In this document: positions 21,658-32,129 of the stretch, piece after piece
Layout: each line of letters opens with the position of its first letter
How positions within the stretch are numbered: position 1 is the first letter of the stretch
Assembly: GCA_017985935.1 (NCBI GenBank)
Contig: JAGNWT010000001.1
Coordinates: 32,871 to 96,870 of the forward strand
DNA from: Anaerolineales bacterium
GTDB taxonomy: Bacteria > Chloroflexota > Anaerolineae > Anaerolineales > Villigracilaceae
Length of the DNA: 64,000 bases
Direction of reading: 5' to 3'
Program-made: the position numbers and the translations under genes
Notes under the pieces: generated by a model
What the model was told of the DNA's origin: nothing
Databases searched by the model: none
The model's input: the letters and a program-made list of their open reading frames with translations, nothing else

Positions 21658-22275
21658 TCATTGCACCAGTAATTCCTTATGTTGGATCACTTCCCACATG
21701 GGCGGAGGCCAATAGATCACCACAGCCTTGCCCACCACATTTTCAGCGGGCAACAGCCCCCAGGAATGTGAATCGGACGAATCATTGCGGTTATCTCCCA
21801 ACACGAACAATTGACCATCAGGCACGAACCATTGTCCCGCATAAAGCGGAGCCGATGCGATGTAGGGCTCATCCAGCACTTGACCGTTCACGGTCACCTT
21901 GCCCTCACCAATGATCACCCGATCGCCAGGCAAACCGATCACCCGTTTGATCAACTCCTGGGTGGGATCCATAGGGAAGTGAAACACAATAATATCGCCG
22001 CGTTGAATATCGCCAAACCGGTAATTCAACTTGCTGACCAAAACAAACTCGCCGTCTTCCAAGGTCGGGCGCATGCTAAACCCATCCACCCGCACACGAG
22101 CCGAAACCGCATTGATCCCCAAAAAAAGAACGACCGCCAAGACAAGAGTCTCAATAATATCCAGCGCAAAACGCCCCCAATTCATACTATCTTCCATAGG
22201 CGCAGAGACCGGAGTCACAGCCTGCTGTTCTTCGGTTTGCCCTTCTGGTTGTAAAGTCTCCAAACGTGCCTCCAT
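21658..22275 (-). CDS. lepB: Signal peptidase I
   Basis: GFSMRPTL (Ser), LIKRVIG (Lys), GDNRNDSSDS. Start set at 22275 because a minus-strand TATAAT lies in the track's first codons. Confidence 0.92.
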   Translation of the reverse strand: MEARLETLQPEGQTEEQQAVTPVSAPMEDSMNWGRFALDIIETLVLAVVLFLGINAVSARVRVDGFSMRPTLEDGEFVLVSKLNYRFGDIQRGDIIVFHFPMDPTQELIKRVIGLPGDRVIIGEGKVTVNGQVLDEPYIASAPLYAGQWFVPDGQLFVLGDNRNDSSDSHSWGLLPAENVVGKAVVIYWPPPMWEVIQHKELLVQ

Positions 22276-22331
22276 ACCTTTCTTTATTTCGATGGGATTA
22301 TACATCGCTTTTTTTCGAAGTCCACTGGGTC

Positions 22332-23045
22332 TTAGGTCTTACCCCAGGCAAAATAGGTCGGCACATGCAGGGCGCGCCTCCCGGCCTTGAAGGCATCTTC
22401 ATCCAAAACCTTCATTTTTTGGATCTCACCTTCTGGAGCAATCCCTGCCAGATCAGATTCGATCACCGCCCATTCATTCTCCCGCTCTTCGGCAGAGCGC
22501 ATCACCAACCCGCCCTGAATGGGTCCTGTTTCCATCAGTTTAATCCCCGCCTGAAAAAAAGTCTCTGCCAGCATGGACCCAAATGATGGATCAGCTCCCT
22601 GCCTGCGGAGAGACTCGGTCTGCCACTCGCCCAGCGGCTTGAGCGCGGACGGCTCATCTACACGCAAGATGTAATCAGGCTCCGCAAGTGCCAGCACGCA
22701 ACGCCCCACCCGGGCCATTTCTCGCACAACCTGCAAGGGGTCTCGCACCCACAGCAAAAGAAAATGACAATAGACAATGTCGAAAGATTGGTCGGGATAT
22801 GGCAGATGATGCGCATCACCGCATAGGAGCGAAGCACCCGGAGCGTGGATTCTGCACTCGGCGAGTGAAGCAGGCTCAAGGTCCAGACCGTGAACGGCGC
22901 AAGGAATTTCGCGCAAGATCGCACCTGTACCGCATCCCACTTCAAGCACGCGGCGCGCAGAGTTCATTCCCGCCTGCTCAAAAACATAAGCCCGCAGGTC
23001 TCGGGTCCACGCCGCCTGTTGAAGATAACGGGTGTGCCAGTTCAT
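22332..23045 (-). CDS. Class I SAM-dependent methyltransferase
   Basis: VLEVGCGTG, GDAHHLPYPDQSFDIV; ATGA overlap with the upstream phosphatase. Confidence 0.85.
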   Translation of the reverse strand: MNWHTRYLQQAAWTRDLRAYVFEQAGMNSARRVLEVGCGTGAILREIPCAVHGLDLEPASLAECRIHAPGASLLCGDAHHLPYPDQSFDIVYCHFLLLWVRDPLQVVREMARVGRCVLALAEPDYILRVDEPSALKPLGEWQTESLRRQGADPSFGSMLAETFFQAGIKLMETGPIQGGLVMRSAEERENEWAVIESDLAGIAPEGEIQKMKVLDEDAFKAGRRALHVPTYFAWGKT

Positions 23046-23593
23046 CCTTCGCAAAAAATTTTGTTGTTTTTGGGTTCGTCCCACCAGTTGAGGACGAACT
23101 GCATTTGTTCTTCGGTTTCAGGGGAAGTTGAAAGATAAGGGTTGTTCGGTCTTGTTTTGTAAAGTTGATCGACCTTTTTCAACGCCTGTTCATTCGGCAT
23201 GCCGCGCCGCACAAGGTGGCAGCCGACGACCATGCCTGTGCGCCCCACCCCGCCCCAACAGTGAACGTACACACAGCCGCCATTCCTGATGGCATCATCC
23301 ATTGTGTCGAGGATGGAGGTCATCAGGTCAGAGGAAGGGACGCCGTGGTCACGGATCGCAAAGCGATGATGAGAGGCGATCACTCCATAGAGTTTTGCCT
23401 GTTCTTTGAGAATTTTTTCATACGGAGGGAGTTCATGCTCGCGCGTCAGGTTGATGAAGGTAGTGACGCCCGCTTCGAGAAAAGCGTCAATGCGGCGGCG
23501 CGTGGTTTCGGCATCGTAACTGCCGGGGTACTCACCCGCAAGAAAACGATTCTCCTCCACCCAGTAGGATTCGACGATGGGAAGTTTTTTCAT
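23042..23593 (-). CDS. Protein-tyrosine/dual-specificity phosphatase family protein
   Basis: VHCWGGVGRTG (CX5R); IRDHGVP general-acid loop. Confidence 0.88.
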   Translation of the reverse strand: MKKLPIVESYWVEENRFLAGEYPGSYDAETTRRRIDAFLEAGVTTFINLTREHELPPYEKILKEQAKLYGVIASHHRFAIRDHGVPSSDLMTSILDTMDDAIRNGGCVYVHCWGGVGRTGMVVGCHLVRRGMPNEQALKKVDQLYKTRPNNPYLSTSPETEEQMQFVLNWWDEPKNNKIFCEG

Positions 23594-23622
23594 ATTTTCA
23601 AGGATACCATAATCGAAAAAAG

Positions 23623-24678
23623 TCACTCCGCTGTGTACGAGCACACGTTCTGAATGATCTGTTGGCGCAGAGCGACCATTTCAGGGAAGTCATAAAAGAA
23701 GCGGATCTTCTGGTCAATGACGCTATCGCCTTCGGGTTTTGGCTCCAGCACAAAGTAAGTGAAGGACTCAGCCATATCCTCATGGATGTTCGAGGCGGCG
23801 TAGTCACGCACAAATTCATTTTCGTGCCGGCTGTAAAATTCATCCACGAGAGCGAAATATTCATCATCCGTATCGGCACGTACTTTCTCAACGGTATCGC
23901 GCCATTCCTCGAAGATGTCGACCCAGAAGGCTTGGTAAAAATGATTGATGTACGAATCAGGTGTCGAGCATCCGTTGGGGTCCAAATACTGTTTACAAAA
24001 AGAAGGGTTTTGCCCCCAGCCAAAATAAAAGTCGGAAGGAGGGATCTGGTCTGTGTTCAGGGTGAGCAAATGTCCAAATTCATGGACGAGAGTGTAGGTC
24101 AGGTAAACAGGTTCCTGCGCGTCGATGATATCCACCGCCAACTGCCAGCTTGAGCGGTCTGCCTCGCCGCGCGGACTGACCCACGCCAGAACATTATCCG
24201 CGTTGTCGGTGAAGATGTAATACTCGCCGATCCATTTCAGTTCATCGGGCGGAAGAAGCGCAGAGGCGTAATCCCAAACCATTTGCTGGGTTTCTAGATC
24301 CTCTTGAAAAGATTTGAATTCCTGCGGCGCGTAAAGCATCAAAGGTTCGCCCAGTTCGCCGTCCTTCACTTTGTAAGTCACCAGATTCAAGTCTGCCTCG
24401 GTGCCGGCATAATCGCCGCCAAGGGATTCGATCTGCCCGATCGAGATCGCATCCTGGATCCTGACGAGGCAGGCGTTCAGGCAGGAATCATCCACGCAAG
24501 TGATGGGATGCGGCGTTGGGCGCGGCGTGGATGTGACCTGCGTCTCTGTTTCAACGACGAGAGTTGCCTCGCTTACAAGCGGCATTTCTGTGGCTGAAGG
24601 AGGCTCGGTCGGCATCAAAGTCTGGCAGGAGATGGAGGCAAGAATCAAAACAAAAATAGCGGCGAGGATTCGTTTCAT
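23623..24678 (-). CDS. Lipoprotein with a zinc metallopeptidase motif
   Basis: Lipobox-like LASISC, Thr/Pro linker, HEFGH and distal EDMAESF. Confidence 0.75.
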   Translation of the reverse strand: MKRILAAIFVLILASISCQTLMPTEPPSATEMPLVSEATLVVETETQVTSTPRPTPHPITCVDDSCLNACLVRIQDAISIGQIESLGGDYAGTEADLNLVTYKVKDGELGEPLMLYAPQEFKSFQEDLETQQMVWDYASALLPPDELKWIGEYYIFTDNADNVLAWVSPRGEADRSSWQLAVDIIDAQEPVYLTYTLVHEFGHLLTLNTDQIPPSDFYFGWGQNPSFCKQYLDPNGCSTPDSYINHFYQAFWVDIFEEWRDTVEKVRADTDDEYFALVDEFYSRHENEFVRDYAASNIHEDMAESFTYFVLEPKPEGDSVIDQKIRFFYDFPEMVALRQQIIQNVCSYTAE

Positions 24679-24704
24679 GTGATTACCCGTCCTTGTCTTT
24701 AATC

Positions 24705-24733
24705 CAAACAGGTCGGAAGGTCTCCGACCTGTT
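24705..24733. repeat. Inverted repeat between the radical SAM operon and the peptidase gene
   Basis: AACAGGTCGGA-aggtc-TCCGACCTGTT. Confidence 0.55.
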
Positions 24734-24750
24734 CATGGATGAATAAACTT

Positions 24751-25878
24751 TTATTTGCGGATCGTTTCCCAATCGTCGCGCAGGAAGTTACCGAGAACTT
24801 TATCTGCTTCACCCTGGGCAGGGAGCACATCTCCGTCAGGCTCCACGTACATCCACGCCTTACCGGCACCCGAGGGGATTTCATCGTCAATGGTTTCAAA
24901 AGCAACGGGATTTGCAGAAGAGTACGGCACGGGCAAATCCCAGCGGATGGTGAGTTGGAGAGTGCTGGCGGTATCCTGCAGTTCGATCAGTTCATCGGTC
25001 AGGTTATGGTCGGCGGCGCTGAGAGAAATATTTTTCACGCCCACTTCTGCCAGCTTTTGCAAAATCTCCTTTGCCTGCGCGGCGTTCTCGTTGTTGAGCG
25101 TCAGATGCACGGTGAGGAAAATATCCTGCGGGACGATGGTGGCAATGGCATTCCATGCCTGCGGGTTGGCAGGCTCAAGGATGAGCATGACATGGTCCAA
25201 CCCGGTTTGCAGGAGCATCTCAAGATAGTCCTTGTCGGCAAGTTTCAAACCGTCGGTGATCAAGCCGCAGACCTGCCCGTTCTTTTCAGCGTGGTCGATC
25301 AACATGACCAGGTCTTCACGCATGGTCGGCTCGCCGCCCGTGAAGATGATATGCGGGATCCCCGCAGACCATGCCTTGTCCATGATGATGCACCACTCGT
25401 CGGTGGAGAGTTCACGGTCCACACGTTTGACGGGAGCATGGTCAGCGTTGGAGTTTTTGGGCAGGCGGTAGGTGATGGCACAGTCGAGCCGCAGAGTGGA
25501 ATCTGCCGAGTGGGGCTGAGCCCGCTCAAAGTCCAGAAAGGATGCGGGGTCCAGGTCTGGAGTGGAGATCAGCGTGTGGATCTGGTCGGTGAAGTTGGCA
25601 AAATCCGCCAGCGCGGTCTTCCGATCCACGCGATAGCGTTTGGAGATCTGTTTGGCGGCTTCTTCGGGGTCGGTGCCTTTGATGAAGTGATAGGCGTATT
25701 CGGCGGCGGTGGGATTCAATTGCATGACGGTGGACGCGTTGAGAATGAGCAAGCCGGACCCGTCAGCGTTCAGACGCAGGTGCAGGCGATAGGGCTTATC
25801 ATCTTCAGTGGATTGCATGTGATGCGTGCCCACAGGAAGCGGCGCGGATTTGGTGAACATTTGAGTCAGGAAGTTCAT
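24751..25878 (-). CDS. Radical SAM-fold paralog lacking all cluster-ligating cysteines, with an RRE/PqqD-like N-terminus
   Basis: Collinear with the 27320-28681 protein. FTGGEP is kept, but AITYRCNNDCAHC becomes AITYRLPKNSNADH and the SPASM Cys are replaced (GAGKAWMYVEPDGDVLPAQ). GGAG RBS; start 25878 (track 25992). Confidence 0.85.
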   Translation of the reverse strand: MNFLTQMFTKSAPLPVGTHHMQSTEDDKPYRLHLRLNADGSGLLILNASTVMQLNPTAAEYAYHFIKGTDPEEAAKQISKRYRVDRKTALADFANFTDQIHTLISTPDLDPASFLDFERAQPHSADSTLRLDCAITYRLPKNSNADHAPVKRVDRELSTDEWCIIMDKAWSAGIPHIIFTGGEPTMREDLVMLIDHAEKNGQVCGLITDGLKLADKDYLEMLLQTGLDHVMLILEPANPQAWNAIATIVPQDIFLTVHLTLNNENAAQAKEILQKLAEVGVKNISLSAADHNLTDELIELQDTASTLQLTIRWDLPVPYSSANPVAFETIDDEIPSGAGKAWMYVEPDGDVLPAQGEADKVLGNFLRDDWETIRK

Positions 25879-25886
25879 AGGGTCTC

Positions 25887-26894
25887 CTATTTGCTGAGTA
25901 TCGCAAGGTCTTGAACAAAGAATAGGATGATATATCCGATGAGAAGCACCACCCAGCCGATCAGTTCGGCTCTTTCCATGATGCCCTCCCACGAAAGGGA
26001 GAAATTATCTTTGACGGTCTGGACGATGCTCTCCAGATTATCTAGTTTGGCTTTTACATTTTCCTTCCAGTCCTTGAGGTAGAACTCGCTCTGGATGGCT
26101 TCGTAAAGTTTCGCGGTGTACCAATCGCCGATGAGCAGCAGGTTCTGTTCGGCGCGTTCAAAGTCCAGCATGACCTCAAGCTTGTGTTCGGCGATCTGGC
26201 GGATGACGCCGCGTGTGGCGCGTGGTCTGCGTTTGTTCTTGAAAAAAGTTTCGCTGATCTTATCCAGCATGGTGTCGATGGATTGATCGAGCATGCGGTA
26301 GCGCAACAACTGGTAATTGCCGATCTTAAGCAGGGCAATGTCGGATTGATAATCGTCGTTGGGCGCGATGATGACCGCGCCTTCCCAATCGACAAGTGTG
26401 AGTTCCTCGGCGGAGTAGCGGGTGCGCGAGATGAGAATGTCGTCGATCTCGCTTTTGTCGAACACTTCACGCTGCGAACGGATGAACTTGGTGAGGGCAA
26501 GCGCGTTCTTCTCGATCCATTTATCGGGCGTGGGTTTTGCCTCCTGCACCAGCAGAACGGTGTACTGTTCGAACAGTCCGTTCTGGCGGTATTGGGTCGG
26601 GATGAATTTGCTCTCCAGCGCAGCCTGGATCTTTGCCCGCTCCTGCAGAACCGATGCGGCGAATGGATTCTTTAACTCGAAGTGACATTCCACCAACTGC
26701 ACACGACCATCATAACGCTGACGCATGACCAGCACCGCATGCCCTTCAATGAGGACGGTCTCTTCGCCAAGCGGGACAATGTCGATATCAATAGGCTGGA
26801 AGTATGGCGCATCCTTTAGTCCCTTAAATGGGTCAGGGACGGGGGCTGTGCCGTCGTCAGTGTCGGGGAAGGCGATGAGGTAGCAGATTTCCAT
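25887..26894 (-). CDS. Hypothetical membrane protein, RMD1/DUF155-like (tentative)
   Basis: VDWEGA..NYQLLRYRMLD..IGDWYTAKLY..FYLKDWKENVKAKL pattern plus C-terminal TM helix; start 26894 (track 27056 overlaps the PAS gene). Confidence 0.65.
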   Translation of the reverse strand: MEICYLIAFPDTDDGTAPVPDPFKGLKDAPYFQPIDIDIVPLGEETVLIEGHAVLVMRQRYDGRVQLVECHFELKNPFAASVLQERAKIQAALESKFIPTQYRQNGLFEQYTVLLVQEAKPTPDKWIEKNALALTKFIRSQREVFDKSEIDDILISRTRYSAEELTLVDWEGAVIIAPNDDYQSDIALLKIGNYQLLRYRMLDQSIDTMLDKISETFFKNKRRPRATRGVIRQIAEHKLEVMLDFERAEQNLLLIGDWYTAKLYEAIQSEFYLKDWKENVKAKLDNLESIVQTVKDNFSLSWEGIMERAELIGWVVLLIGYIILFFVQDLAILSK

Positions 26895-26931
26895 AGGAGT
26901 GGGGTAAGAAGTAAAGTTAAGCAAGAAGTGA

Positions 26932-27273
26932 TCAGGCACGGATAAAGTGCGGAAGTTCAAGCGGGATCTCCAATGAGAGTTCCACAAAGCCCGCGTAGCT
27001 GCCGTCTTTGTACCACGGCGATTGATAAATGAGCTTTTTGACTCCGTTCTTTTCAATAGTGTACACGTTCTTCTGGTGCGCGGCGAGCAATCTTTCGACC
27101 TTGTTACGGGCAGGGTCAGGGTGACAGTCTAACATGTTCGAGCCAACCAGTTTATAGCCACCGTCCTTTTCAAAGGTCCTGGCGGCTTTGTCGTTCATTT
27201 CAAGGATGATGCCTTCCTCGTCACAGACGGTGATGGCGGCGGGAAATTCTTTGATCCATTCGTGGTCAGACAT
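26932..27273 (-). CDS. Stand-alone PAS domain protein
   Basis: ITVCDEEGIILEMN..A, G-x-N-x-x-DCHP PAS pattern; 113 aa; GGAG RBS. Confidence 0.8.
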   Translation of the reverse strand: MSDHEWIKEFPAAITVCDEEGIILEMNDKAARTFEKDGGYKLVGSNMLDCHPDPARNKVERLLAAHQKNVYTIEKNGVKKLIYQSPWYKDGSYAGFVELSLEIPLELPHFIRA

Positions 27274-27319
27274 GAGATCTCCAGATCAGGTTACAAGCGG
27301 GCAGGCTGACAGTTAAAGG

Positions 27320-28681
27320 TTAACCAGCGACCTGTAAAACTTCCAAGTGCAACTGATGTCCTTCAAACTTAAGCGGGCATCCCCCGCCGCACTCGGCAAC
27401 AAGGGAACAGGTCTCGCATTTGAAGGGCAGGTTCTGGCGTTCGCGCAACTGAACAGAGAGCTTGTGATTCCAGATCGAGTCCCATGAGTCGGTAAGGAAG
27501 TTGCCTAGCGGCTGGTAATAGGATTGGCAGGGAAGCACATTGCCATTGGATTCAATGCACATGCTGTAAAGCGCGGCAGTGCAGCCTTTCACTCCCAGGT
27601 TGCTCGCTGTGGGGTCGAACTCACAGTATTGGGTCGGCGTGTACCAGATGAGCCTTTGTCCACGGGCGGCGGTCTTTTGGGTGGCGACATCCAACAGGGG
27701 CTGCAACTCGCTCTCGCGCAGCCCCGTGCCAACGGTCAGACCTTGACCGGAAAGAATAAGGGCGTTGAGCCCAATGGTGGGGACTCCGTTATCGGCGAGA
27801 AAATCCAGCGTGGCGGGAATCGTATGCGCGTTCGTTCTCAGCATGGTGGTATTGGTCATCACGTAGAGTTTGGTCGCGAGGGCATTATTCAGCCCCGTTA
27901 TCGTCTGCTTGAACGCACCCTTTGCGCGCATCATTTCGTCGTGGATCTCAGGCACGCAAGATTCGACCGTGATCTGAACATGGTCAAGCCCGGCATCAAC
28001 AAGTTGTTGGACGTAATCCATATCCATCAGACGGCGGGCGTTCGTGTTCAGACCTGTGATCTGCCCGTTGCGTTCTGCATGCCGGATCAACTCTGGAAGA
28101 TCGTTTCGCAAGGTCGCTTCGCCGCCCGTGAAAACAATGTGCGGCACGCCCAAATCCCACAGCTTATCGAGAGTGGACTTCCATTGGTCGGTGCTGAGTT
28201 CGGGAAAGTTCCGCTCGCGGGCGTTATAGCAATGAGCACAGTCGTTGTTACAGCGATATGTGATGGCAAGGTCCATGCGGTAAGGCGCGGATGGTCTCGC
28301 ACTGAAAGGCATCACCGTATCAAGATCAAGTTCGTGGACGGGACATGCGCCATCGGGGCGCAGCAATTCAGAAAGTTGAACCTGAAAATCGGACAAGTCC
28401 GTGAACGCCTGGGTTTTGCTCACACGATAATTTCTGCGGATGGCGCTCAGCGCCTGATCTTCGCTTACTTTTTCCAATGTGAGATATGCCATGAACGCCG
28501 CGGTCGGATTCAGGTGCATGACACTGCTGGCATTGACGATGAGCGTGCCCGTGCCATCGGGGTCAATGCGGAGATGAATACGTGATTTCTCGGACCCATC
28601 TTCGCGCTGGTAATGATACAAGCCCGAGCCGGGGTTTTCGATCGAGGATTTACGATTAAATAGATTACTAAATAAACTCAT
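27320..28681 (-). CDS. Radical SAM/SPASM domain protein with an N-terminal RRE (PqqD-like) domain
   Basis: CNNDCAHC, FTGGEA, SPASM CTAALYSMC..GNVLPC and CETCSLVAECGGGCP; N-terminal LNPTAA...YRVSKTQAFTDL PqqD-like segment. Confidence 0.93.
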   Translation of the reverse strand: MSLFSNLFNRKSSIENPGSGLYHYQREDGSEKSRIHLRIDPDGTGTLIVNASSVMHLNPTAAFMAYLTLEKVSEDQALSAIRRNYRVSKTQAFTDLSDFQVQLSELLRPDGACPVHELDLDTVMPFSARPSAPYRMDLAITYRCNNDCAHCYNARERNFPELSTDQWKSTLDKLWDLGVPHIVFTGGEATLRNDLPELIRHAERNGQITGLNTNARRLMDMDYVQQLVDAGLDHVQITVESCVPEIHDEMMRAKGAFKQTITGLNNALATKLYVMTNTTMLRTNAHTIPATLDFLADNGVPTIGLNALILSGQGLTVGTGLRESELQPLLDVATQKTAARGQRLIWYTPTQYCEFDPTASNLGVKGCTAALYSMCIESNGNVLPCQSYYQPLGNFLTDSWDSIWNHKLSVQLRERQNLPFKCETCSLVAECGGGCPLKFEGHQLHLEVLQVAG

Positions 28682-28723
28682 GCTGACCTTTTCTCTGATC
28701 AATAAAGATTGAACCTGTCAAAT

Positions 28724-30382
28724 TTATCTTCCGCCGCCGGCACAGGCGCAGGCGCAGCCCGCACAGGCACAAGCGCAGGCACATGAACGTCCACCGCCGC
28801 CACCGCTCCGTCCGCTGGAAGTGGGTTTGGGCGGAGGGTTCGTGGCGCCTGTGATCTTCTCGGTGAAGGTGTTGACATTGCCCACGACCTTCGAGGAGAA
28901 GGTCTGCACGCCCGTCACCACTTGCGCGGCAAAGTCTGCGCCGGGCAGGGCTGTGCGGCTCGAGGGCTGACCCATGCTCGGGGTCGGGAATCCGCTCGAA
29001 GCCTGGGTGGGACGCGGGGCATAGGTTGGGTTATATCTCCCCCACCAATGCGGAAGGAAGATCGGTCCGTTGAAGACGCGCCGCGTGCGATCGTCGTAAT
29101 CTTTGTCGAGCATGGTCCATTCGAGGGCTTCGTCAAATTTCTGGCTCTTGACCTCTGGCGTGTCGGCGGCTTCGATCTGCTGCCAAGCTTTTTCCATGAT
29201 GGACTTGTAATACGCGACGGTTTCCTTGCGGCTGAATCCGCGCATCTTTTCTGAAACACTCTTGACCAACGCGATCATCATCGCCTGCAAGTCACCCTGA
29301 CGGGTCTTTTTATCTGCGGTCTTGAAAGCCTTGAGAAAATCCTTTTCGTACTGATGCAAACCATCGGGGGTGGGGTTGGCAACATCCAACTCGAGCGGGT
29401 CGCGGGTCTTGACCGATGCCGCCTCTTTCTTAATGGCGCCAAAGAGGATCATGGTCAACACCTTGTCGAGCGGCTGCTCCATGAGGATGGCAGATTCCAC
29501 AGCGGTCAATCCGCGCTTGATGCCGTGACCTTCAATGGCGACCTTGGGCGGCATGTACTGCATCTTGCGGCGTTGATTGCCGATCGCTGTCAATGTGGGA
29601 GCGCCAATGAACATGAAGGCAAAGAAACCGCAGCATATCACGTTGAAAATGGTGTCGGTGCTGATCAGCGGCTCGGAAGCAGGGACGGTAATGCTCTCCG
29701 CAGGGACGTAGGTCTTTGGGAAGGATGCGCCGAAAAGATAATATTCCGACGCGTTGGCCGAAGGTGAATACCAGGTATAGGTCACCCGGTTCTCTGAGTC
29801 ATAGACCGATTGCGGCTCAGATGGAAACCCCGAAGGCGCCGCGTGCCAACGCGGTTCCTGCTCGTTCATATTCGGCGGCAGATGAAAGGTGAGCGTGAAA
29901 TCAGTATTCCCTGTTACATACTGCGAGCCGAAATAAGTGGGAGCAAATGCGGCGCTGGCGTAGGCTTCGTCGTTATCGTCTGGATACAGCACGCCGGTGA
30001 TCCGGCCGACATAAACATGCACGGTTGCGGTTCCGCCGGCAGGGATGGATTGACTTCCAAGCACAACAGCAAAACCCGATCCACCTCCCTGATAATCGCC
30101 GGTCGAGACCGATACAGGCACCCCGTCCACATCGGCTTGGATCGTGCCGGTATCAAAGTTGTAGTTAGGCATGCCCACATCTACAAAGTCGATCTCATGC
30201 GAGTCGGGTTGGTTGGTGAAGACCCACGTGTAATCCAAACTTTGAGAGCCGTCTGAATTCCAATAGACGTGCACCACCTGTTTGTTCACTTGAAAGTAAT
30301 ATGGAAGGTCCTGCGCAGATACATTCGCTGCGCCCCCCATCGTAAGCAAAATCACCAGTGCGAATAAAAATATTTTTTTCAT
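28724..30382 (-). CDS. DUF2207-like single-pass membrane protein with a C-terminal Cys-Ala repeat tail
   Basis: Signal peptide, beta-rich exported domain, TM helix (NVICCGFFAFMFIGAPTL), cytoplasmic domain, Gly linker, tail SCACACACAGCACACAGGGR; GGAGG RBS. Confidence 0.85.
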   Translation of the reverse strand: MKKIFLFALVILLTMGGAANVSAQDLPYYFQVNKQVVHVYWNSDGSQSLDYTWVFTNQPDSHEIDFVDVGMPNYNFDTGTIQADVDGVPVSVSTGDYQGGGSGFAVVLGSQSIPAGGTATVHVYVGRITGVLYPDDNDEAYASAAFAPTYFGSQYVTGNTDFTLTFHLPPNMNEQEPRWHAAPSGFPSEPQSVYDSENRVTYTWYSPSANASEYYLFGASFPKTYVPAESITVPASEPLISTDTIFNVICCGFFAFMFIGAPTLTAIGNQRRKMQYMPPKVAIEGHGIKRGLTAVESAILMEQPLDKVLTMILFGAIKKEAASVKTRDPLELDVANPTPDGLHQYEKDFLKAFKTADKKTRQGDLQAMMIALVKSVSEKMRGFSRKETVAYYKSIMEKAWQQIEAADTPEVKSQKFDEALEWTMLDKDYDDRTRRVFNGPIFLPHWWGRYNPTYAPRPTQASSGFPTPSMGQPSSRTALPGADFAAQVVTGVQTFSSKVVGNVNTFTEKITGATNPPPKPTSSGRSGGGGGRSCACACACAGCACACAGGGR

Positions 30383-30419
30383 ACAACCTCCAACGTTGAA
30401 CCTTGAACGTTAACCGTTC

Positions 30420-30824
30420 CTACCACTTCGGTTCTTCTGTCAGTTGATAGACCGTGCCGCAGAAGGGACATTCCACCGTAGGCGCGCCTGCGATCATCTT
30501 TACATTATCGGCCTTCAATGAGCCGCCGCAGGATCTGCACTTCATCTGCTCAACCTTGGTCTGGGCAGGCAGATCGATCTTATAGGTGATGTTATCTCCG
30601 CCGCCGCCAGCCGCCTTTTGCCTGCTCGCAAAAACGATCAGCCCAATGCCTCCTCCAAGGAAAGCCACGCCAACGCAGGAGAAAGCAATGCCAAAGGTCA
30701 GCCACGACCCGCTCCCCTGGGCGGAGGTGGAACCGATGACACTTAATACGCCATAGCCAAAGAGGCAAACTCCGATCAACAACAAAATCCCCGCTCCGAT
30801 ATACATTAATGTCTTGTTGCCCAT
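30420..30824 (-). CDS. Two-TM membrane protein with a C-terminal zinc ribbon
   Basis: Two hydrophobic helices, then CRSCGG...CPFCG; AAGGAG RBS before ATG 30824. Confidence 0.8.
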   Translation of the reverse strand: MGNKTLMYIGAGILLLIGVCLFGYGVLSVIGSTSAQGSGSWLTFGIAFSCVGVAFLGGGIGLIVFASRQKAAGGGGDNITYKIDLPAQTKVEQMKCRSCGGSLKADNVKMIAGAPTVECPFCGTVYQLTEEPKW

Positions 30825-30947
30825 ACGAATGAAACTCCTTATTGATCCGACTACCAAACTACATACGTAAAGTTTAGCATTTTCGTCTCATAAAGGCATG
30901 TGACTTTCATCCATTAATCTTCCTATGTCAGTCCAATTCAAAATCTG

Positions 30948-32129
30948 CTAAACTCTTTGCGGTAGCCGTACACGCAGGGCTGTAAAAAAGTTTATGATGG
31001 CTATTCCCATTCCTAACAGAAAAACATATTGAAAACCAAACGTGTTCCAGATAACCCCGCCCACCAGTGCAGCGGTGATCGAGAACACATGGTCAATTGT
31101 GACAGCAGCGGTCAACGCAGGCTGGATGTGATCGGGCTGTAACGCGATCTTTTTCATGTACGTGGCTCGCGCCATGCTGACCGAAAAAATCATCTGATCG
31201 ATCAGGAAGCAGACACACACCACAAGAAAAGCAACTTCTTCAGAGAAGATAAATTTTGCAAATCCATAACCTATACAAACAAAGACCAGAACGACAGCCT
31301 CTGAAGCCAGCACAACGCGTTCACCAAATTTATCGATCGCCCACCCAAGCAAAGGCTGAAATAGGATTCCGATCACCCCGCCAATGGTAAACAAGGTCGC
31401 CATGATCTGGGTTGGCTGCCCCAACACACTGACCAACACCCAGGGGGCAAAAGTAATGAAAAGCTGTTTGCGGGCACCCGAAAGTACATTCAAGGTGTAA
31501 TACAAACGATATTCCGGATGCAGTTGTAAAAATCCGCGCCGCTCAACGACCGGTTCTGGGGTCATCATGAATAATAAAACAGCAGCAATGACCAGTAAAA
31601 CAGCGGAAATGGCAAATGTGTGTTGAAAGGAAAATCCAAGATATTTGAATCCCAGCACCACACTGAAACTGCCTAAAATGGCCGCAAGATTGCGGATGGA
31701 ATTGATCTGCCCAAGGCGGCGCCCATCCTGCCCTTCTCGCGCCAGTTCCATGCCAATGGTCGAAGCGAGCGGCATAAAAAGGTGATTGCCCATGCTATAC
31801 ACAAACAACCAAAGCAACATCACAGAATAACCGGAAGAAGCAAAACCGATCAGTACTGCGCCTAATGCGCCAAGGATCATTGCCACCACACTCAGCCTGC
31901 GCGAACAAAGAAATCCCATCGCCGCTGAAACAAATACCACCAGAAAGCCGGGCAATTCGCGCGGAAATTCCAAAAAGGAACGCTGGAATCCCGTCAATGC
32001 AAATTTTTCGTTGAGAAAATTGTTGAAAGTAGAATCGAACATGCTGAATGCCATGCCAAGAGCCAGCGCGGCAGAGGCAAAAAGGATAAGTTCACGCGAA
32101 GACCGCCTGAAACGAGATATAAGATTCAT
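30948..32129 (-). CDS. MFS transporter
   Basis: About 12 TM helices; IDKFGER motif A-like loop. Confidence 0.85.
   Translation of the reverse strand: MNLISRFRRSSRELILFASAALALGMAFSMFDSTFNNFLNEKFALTGFQRSFLEFPRELPGFLVVFVSAAMGFLCSRRLSVVAMILGALGAVLIGFASSGYSVMLLWLFVYSMGNHLFMPLASTIGMELAREGQDGRRLGQINSIRNLAAILGSFSVVLGFKYLGFSFQHTFAISAVLLVIAAVLLFMMTPEPVVERRGFLQLHPEYRLYYTLNVLSGARKQLFITFAPWVLVSVLGQPTQIMATLFTIGGVIGILFQPLLGWAIDKFGERVVLASEAVVLVFVCIGYGFAKFIFSEEVAFLVVCVCFLIDQMIFSVSMARATYMKKIALQPDHIQPALTAAVTIDHVFSITAALVGGVIWNTFGFQYVFLLGMGIAIINFFTALRVRLPQRV

Follow-up and report, generated by a model that had tools for sequence, protein, structure and literature searches.

A conserved, cysteine-less radical SAM paralog in an apparent protein-tail maturation cassette of Anaerolineales

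The cassette and its genes

The window, a 64,000-nucleotide stretch of DNA from an Anaerolineales bacterium, carries a set of reverse-strand genes (Table 1) that includes two radical SAM paralogs: ACT, the active one, and PSE, which is without cluster cysteines. Different families share the gene order of this cassette, ZnRib-P4-ACT-PSE-MT, and differ in the genes inserted into it. MT, the methyltransferase that the earlier note omitted, is a conserved member; in most other families it lies directly 3' of PSE, and here two inserted genes stand between them. Insert positions vary within the genus for the PAS protein, the 335-aa TM-anchored protein, the HExxH lipoproteins and the DSP phosphatase. 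Species of the genus differ in how many HExxH lipoprotein genes, 0 to 4 in tandem, lie between PSE and the phosphatase. ACT has the Pfam domains PqqD, Radical_SAM and SPASM, and NCBIfam returned no model at cut-off for any cassette protein. Apparent natural fusions of PSE with MT (P0143, P0166 and P0205) were set aside as frameshifted or chimeric gene calls.

Table 1. Coordinates of the cassette genes, inserted genes and PSE features in the window
Feature	Position	Strand	Remarks
2-TM zinc-ribbon protein (ZnRib)	30420..30857	-	First gene of the conserved cassette
P4	28724..30382	-	552 aa; signal peptide and single TM; bears Cys-Ala tail; probable substrate
C-terminal tail of P4, ...SCACACACAGCACACAGGGR	28727..28786	-	Invariant across orthologs; codons vary
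ACT, active RRE-rSAM-SPASM paralog	27320..28681	-	CxxxCxxC and full SPASM Cys; start is the Met common to orthologs
PAS protein	26932..27273	-	113 aa; lineage-specific insert between ACT and PSE
C-terminally TM-anchored protein	25887..26894	-	335 aa; precomputed Pfam MJ0711_N; lineage-specific insert
Shine-Dalgarno GGAGA	25883..25887	-	5 nt upstream of the PSE ATG at 25878; overlaps TAG stop of the preceding gene
PSE, radical-SAM paralog without cluster Cys	24751..25878	-	375 aa and stop
PqqD/RRE-like domain of PSE	25564..25830	-	About residues 17-105; four beta strands and three helices; PF05402, AF2
LPKNSNADH loop of PSE	25441..25467	-	In place of CNNDCAHC [4Fe-4S] loop; alignment with ACT
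GGE motif (FTGGEP) kept in PSE	25330..25338	-	Invariant in PSE and ACT families
Partial (beta/alpha)6 radical-SAM barrel of PSE	24949..25497	-	About residues 128-310; PF04055, AF2, Foldseek (PqqE, SkfB, SuiB)
Cys-free twitch/SPASM remnant of PSE	24754..24948	-	WDLPVPYS...GAGKxWxYVEPDGDVLPAQG...LGNxLxDxW; highly conserved, low model confidence
HExxH lipoprotein	23623..24678	-	Variable insert, 0-4 copies in relatives
DSP/PTP-type phosphatase	23042..23644	-	Variable insert
Class I SAM-dependent methyltransferase (MT)	22332..23084	-	Conserved cassette member

P4 ends in a 19-residue Cys-Ala tail: CACACACAGCACACAGGGR is invariant in 66 of 67 orthologs, and the same tail ends P4 homologs of only 26% overall identity. 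Tails of P4 were seen also in loci L013-L023 and L112-L115. Since the tail codons vary synonymously, the constraint acts on the protein. A conserved segment, LPGADFAAxVVxGVQxFxxxVxGNxxxFTxxxTxxTNPxP, precedes the tail. The idea that each tandem element of this region (GVQTFSSKV / GNVNTFTEKI) provides one RRE site was dropped because the same segment is present in systems that have no PSE. Assignment of P4 to DUF2207 was likewise rejected; P4 has no Pfam match even at E values up to 1 and no relative in the PDB.

The earlier note described PSE as a 375-aa ORF with a ribosome-binding site, and this gene model holds, with a GGAG ribosome-binding site and a start Met common to orthologs. A longer, GTG-initiated ORF extends over PSE to 25992; because the same Met starts the PSE orthologs, this extension is unnecessary. 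Adjacent ACT and PSE genes are often in frame with each other (L014, L015, L017, L074, L077, L078, L082, L117, L119 and L120), the ACT stop being followed by 3-27 sense codons (about five in most, 27 in L077). This arrangement, found in about half of the adjacent cases seen, may be due to chance. The natural read-through of the L078 pair was modeled with AF2, the ACT stop being read as Gly; the result, a monomer model from 10 paired rows and without cofactors, reached pTM 0.51. In this fusion model (10-row alignment) the conserved C-terminal stretch of PSE had pLDDT below 50, with no gain in confidence; so weak a test speaks neither for nor against a defined heterodimer.

Positions 22000-31000 of the window recur, with a word share of 83-92%, in metagenomes of wastewater and activated sludge that come from many studies (runs X1-X22). 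Transcript data from two sludge metatranscriptomes amount to only four short contig pieces of low depth within the operon, with only 24 nt on PSE, too little to count as evidence of transcription.

Lost cysteines and a retained fold

PSE and ACT share 34% identity over 409 columns (BLASTP, E 6e-68) and are collinear from the RRE through LGNFLxDxW, as the earlier note had read from the letters. Its two replacements are likewise present in the alignment. YRCNNDCAHCY of ACT stands opposite YRLPKNSNADH of PSE, and the SPASM segment GCTAALYSMCIESNGNVLPCQ of ACT pairs with GAGKAWMYVEPDGDVLPAQ of PSE; the ACT cysteines C360, C374, C382 and C392 (P0002 numbering) correspond to S, I, Y and A. PSE terminates upstream of the last Cys block of ACT, so that the absence of this segment stands, with a correction to its spacing: the block, CETCSLVAECGGGC, reads CxxCx5CxxxC and not the CxxCx4Cx3C given before. 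A further cysteine of ACT, C120 (DGACP, P0002 numbering), is replaced by an Asp that is invariant in PSE. C120 is 98% conserved in ACT, lies in the linker between RRE and barrel, is additional to the CxxxCxxC and SPASM set, and is a possible extra cluster ligand. Three cysteines are left in PSE (C133, C163 and C204), none of them at a ligand position.

Pfam places PSE within the structural superfamily, with a Radical_SAM (PF04055) score of 47 bits against a cut-off of 29.5, and recognizes its RRE as PqqD (PF05402) at 27.4 bits against a cut-off of 23.4, a winged-helix-like (beta3-alpha3) domain type predicted to recognize peptides. There is no Pfam match to SPASM (PF13186) in PSE, and the seven-Cys pattern Cx9-15Gx4C...CxxCx5CxxxC...C is absent from it. 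CxxxCxxC is missing from all 93 aligned PSE orthologs, from the 120 best homologs in the database and from 39 representatives of full-length clusters. Judged by its residues, PSE is unable to hold any Fe-S cluster and incapable of radical chemistry, and it should not be counted as a functional member of the radical SAM enzymes.

The AF2 model of PSE (27-row alignment; pLDDT 74.7, pTM 0.71) has an RRE composed of strands at residues 17-54 and helices at 56-105, with pLDDT up to 93, followed by a barrel of six beta-alpha units at residues 130-306. The C-terminal stretch at 315-347 is poorly modeled, yet among the most conserved parts of the protein. By Foldseek and a profile search of PDB sequences, the best matches are PqqE, SkfB, BlsE, SuiB and MoaA. 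RRE conservation is 0.76 in PSE versus 0.72 in ACT, and both carry HLRL..DG.G.L..NA..V..LN.TAA, the peptide-binding strand-helix of RREs.

Family-level comparison of 93 dead with 82 active sequences extends these observations to the SAM site. GGE is invariant in both paralog families, and two ACT loops (254-263 and 315-328) are deleted in PSE. Among the SAM contacts, ES of beta4 has become QP (Pro in 94%), NTN of beta3 has become LTD, and the beta5 Asn, N284 of ACT, is H258 in PSE. At these changed positions, the residues differ from those of ACT yet are conserved within PSE. One role proposed earlier, a sensor or buffer of SAM, SAH or 5'-deoxyadenosine that ties the system to methyl-cycle status, could draw on the invariant GGE and the retained barrel. 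It is weakened by these changes: PSE no longer has the unique iron that anchors SAM, it has lost the loops that follow beta4 and beta6, and with other residues in its ribose and adenine motifs it is unlikely to sense SAM. We consider such a sensor very improbable.

PSE has an invariant Asp/His set of its own (D108, D110, D209, D252, H258, D314, D348 and D350), inviting the question of a new activity. The barrel might have been rebuilt as a cluster-independent catalytic or metal site, with P4 or its tail undergoing a distinct reaction there that involves no radical. PSE-specific residues that are at least 90% conserved include many carboxylates and a His, and these occupy what were cluster or SAM sites: D110 stands where ACT has Cys, D209 and H258 each where it has Asn, and D348 and D350 lie in the hairpin. 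Conservation also persists at the strand ends around the mouth of the barrel, and the overall barrel conservation of 0.745 (versus 0.85 in ACT) is high for a pure scaffold. A Cys-less form beside a tail-less P4-like protein at locus L126 (discussed below) would also fit a new enzyme. However, Pfam, NCBIfam, PDB-sequence profile and Foldseek searches gave no match to any non-rSAM enzyme family, the replacement residues could merely stabilize the fold in place of clusters, and the two deleted loops belong to the ACT active site. On the whole, we regard a rebuilt enzyme, the rival reading that the Asp and His residues favor, as unlikely.

Maintenance, distribution and repeated loss

PSE is under purifying selection and is maintained, not decaying. 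Against a 95%-identical relative its dN/dS is 0.065 at dS 0.36, with similar values for neighboring genes, and across 186 species pairs PSE has a median ω of 0.27 and ACT one of 0.22. The ORF is intact and Cys-less in 80 of 80 species-representative genomes, labeled Anaerolineales or Chloroflexota apart from probable mislabels. Sixteen order-level orthologs from at least eight families are all intact, and none has CxxxCxxC or the SPASM cysteines; the best 120 database homologs have only 2-3 Cys each. In a separate search of 41 genomes of close and order-level relatives, 22 carry PSE with no internal stop, the identity being 44-79% in genomes other than the source, and PSE adjoins ACT wherever one assembled contig holds both; 8 further genomes gave matches only to ACT or to unrelated radical-SAM genes.

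A profile search of 1.84 billion cluster representatives recovered about 39 full-length clusters of PSE type at 50% identity, all Cys-less, and relatives of PSE are confirmed in at least 591 species genomes. In a maximum-likelihood tree the PSE-type clusters form one clade on a 100/100 branch; this clade is monophyletic and sits on a long branch outside all active clades, and lineages without PSE may be ancestral or may have lost it.

The earlier note took the targeted loss of cysteines as a sign of selection, and named as contrary evidence any close relatives that keep CxxxCxxC or carry frameshifts. We looked for these and found no ortholog with the motif, a frameshift or a stop, whether among 120 database homologs, in 80 species genomes or in orthologs as distant as 43% identity. 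Two of the checks that it suggested, dN/dS and conservation of the Cys loss, strongly support its reading. A recent pseudogene whose frame is still open by chance could appeal to the lost catalytic residues and to nothing else. The intact orthologs, the low dN/dS, an ω on par with that of the active paralog, and a single clade of at least 39 uniformly Cys-less clusters reduce its probability to a negligible level.

Presence and absence across genomes link PSE to ACT and to the P4 tail. A back-translated tail pattern, searched in a 401-genome sample of the phylum, occurs once each in 27 genomes; the reversed-pattern control gave no match in the same 401. Genomes of the order account for 25 of these, the source genome included. 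ACT and PSE were both found in 23 of 23 re-searched tail-bearing relatives of the order, and both genes are absent from 8 of the 9 genomes of the order that have no tail. Tail, ACT and PSE are gained or lost together. A 97%-complete genome, G257, departs from this pattern with an intact PSE ortholog of 58% identity and no ACT or tail pattern anywhere. The G257 gene (L116, G257:C35:1-10000) adjoins leucine-biosynthesis genes. In the opposite direction, two genomes outside the class have tail and ACT without PSE, one of them with ZnRib-P4-ACT-MT in a row. PSE is therefore accessory, and the chemistry does not require it generally, a dispensability in some tail-bearing lineages that the earlier note missed.

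That dispensability, together with the close similarity of the PSE and ACT RREs, could suit a negative regulator or decoy that competes for the P4 recognition segment or caps ACT, thereby tuning or timing tail maturation. The PAS-domain and phosphatase genes often inserted nearby hint at regulation as well. Near-strict co-inheritance with ACT and the tail, plus a convergent origin (below), fit a positive partner better than a brake, and we think a regulator of this kind improbable.

Further Cys-less lineages lie on the active side of the tree. At L022 (G033:C24, 6264-7664, reverse strand), where the gene order is ZnRib-ACT-paralog-P4-MT, the second paralog is without CxxxCxxC and the first SPASM Cys and retains CxxCx5CxxxC; by its sequence it appears to be an intermediate form. 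On the distant contig L124 (JGI 3300064063 contig, GC 35%), ZnRib and a P4 bearing this tail come with the Cys-less P0188, followed by a glycosidase and an active paralog that carries ITYNCNNKCAHCY. P0188 is 45% identical to the active clade P0192 and 31% identical to PSE, and is nested in the active clade with support 100/99. Here the cassette underwent a duplication of its own, with its own loss of Cys, and dead copies have evolved in it more than once.

A third case, L126 (JGI 3300036766 contig), combines a tail-less P4 homolog and a Cys-less paralog with no active copy on the 8-kb piece. It is probably archaeal because it includes ribosomal protein L15e of archaeal type. Because a Cys-less paralog pairs here with a tail-less P4-like protein, the tie is to P4 itself and extends beyond radical chemistry. 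L124 and L126 are relatives of the cassette outside Chloroflexota-like DNA.

Possible roles and relation to known systems

Four roles had been put forward for PSE: substrate-presenting scaffold, heterodimer partner, SAM sensor and regulator. By genomic context and analogy, scaffold or partner is the best fit among these, and we lean, with moderate confidence, toward PSE as an accessory, non-catalytic, RRE-bearing partner of the ACT/P4 cassette. PSE keeps an RRE of the peptide-binding type and the barrel scaffold, and can hold no Fe-S cluster. It could hold the conserved pre-tail segment or the body of P4, and/or pair with ACT through the RRE domains. ACT would then perform radical chemistry on the cytoplasmic Cys-Ala tail of P4, and MT may complete the modification afterward. 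Binding by PSE, its target and the formation of a heterodimer are what we infer.

Counted in favor of a partner are the universal Cys loss with an intact frame, purifying selection, an RRE conserved as it is in ACT, the kept cassette order, co-occurrence, the convergence seen at L124, the pairing at L126 and the precedent of TrnC/TrnD. Counted against it are a pre-tail segment that is alike in systems with and without PSE, the two outside-class genomes that do without PSE, the solitary PSE of G257, and the invariant Asp/His set, which could mean a new activity.

[quoted passage not shown] In that complex the substrate is positioned between the barrels, and of the two rSAM clusters that of TrnC alone is strictly essential (PMC12093266). 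Here too there is an adjacent pair of RRE-rSAM paralogs and one probable Cys-containing substrate, a PSE-ACT complex being our proposal. The systems differ in that TrnD retains both bound clusters and rSAM activity, whereas PSE has no clusters, and in that the TrnC/TrnD substrates are free precursor peptides, whereas the candidate here is the tail of a 552-aa membrane protein. The likeness is one of functional analogy, with a sequence relation taken only at the superfamily level. By this analogy, a TrnC/TrnD-like arrangement could lose the clusters of its second partner entirely.

PqqE is the best match of PSE in both sequence and fold (6c8v, E 1e-13; Foldseek E 4e-10). The two systems share a PqqD-type RRE and the logic of peptide presentation by an RRE to the barrel of an rSAM/SPASM protein. 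PqqE, with its full set of clusters, catalyzes C-C bond formation, unlike PSE, whose locus has no PqqA-like peptide; no pqq genes were found near PSE, and its score of 77.9 bits against the PqqE model TIGR02109 (cut-off 381) leaves it outside that family. Public records name PSE orthologs "radical SAM protein," "organic radical activating enzyme" or "PqqA peptide cyclase," names that are inapplicable to a cluster-less protein. A more distant parallel is the E1-like C protein of YcaO cyclodehydratases, an inert enzyme homolog that bears an RRE and presents substrate to an active partner; its fold and chemistry differ from those of PSE, and the comparison is one of analogy only.

Two NCBIfam families, TIGR04347 (pseudo-SAM/SPASM, haloarchaea) and TIGR04150 (pseudo_rSAM_GG), are by name rSAM-fold proteins without the canonical cluster motif. 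Their members are encoded beside genuine rSAM maturases, and to our knowledge neither family has been characterized experimentally. PSE belongs to neither: it scores 47.7 bits against TIGR04347 (cut-off 525) in a partial match over residues 146-231, and its locus in the source genome scores 11.7 bits against TIGR04150 (cut-off 250). Taxa and substrates of these families differ from those of PSE. Literature searches (pseudo-rSAM, TIGR04347, DUF2207 with radical SAM) found no description of the PSE family or of its cassette.

The radical SAM superfamily is one of the largest known for enzymes, and we know of almost nothing on members that gave up their clusters. PSE is a new, uncurated family of a recognized but uncharacterized kind of protein; the existence of TIGR04347 and TIGR04150 shows that curators already recognize the pseudo-rSAM kind. 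The cassette is apparently a hitherto undescribed system for protein-tail maturation, with the P4 tail as its apparent substrate. Because a dead partner has evolved independently in the same cassette, a selected, non-catalytic role is likely.

A broader and much more speculative generalization would make cluster-free rSAM-fold proteins recurrently evolved, selected partners in membrane-protein tail maturation, in Anaerolineales and in other lineages including archaeal-looking contigs. Their cluster-independent job would be tied to a P4-family protein, for which they would serve either as an obligate subunit in the manner of a prozyme or as a chaperone of P4. We hold this only tentatively; if true, the tie to P4 would explain why dead copies arose at least twice, why one stands beside a tail-less P4 and why one is an orphan. 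The PSE family also warns against taking automated tallies of rSAM enzymes and of RiPP clusters at face value. The cassette offers a clean, heterologously testable case of rSAM maturases that recruit paralogous helpers.
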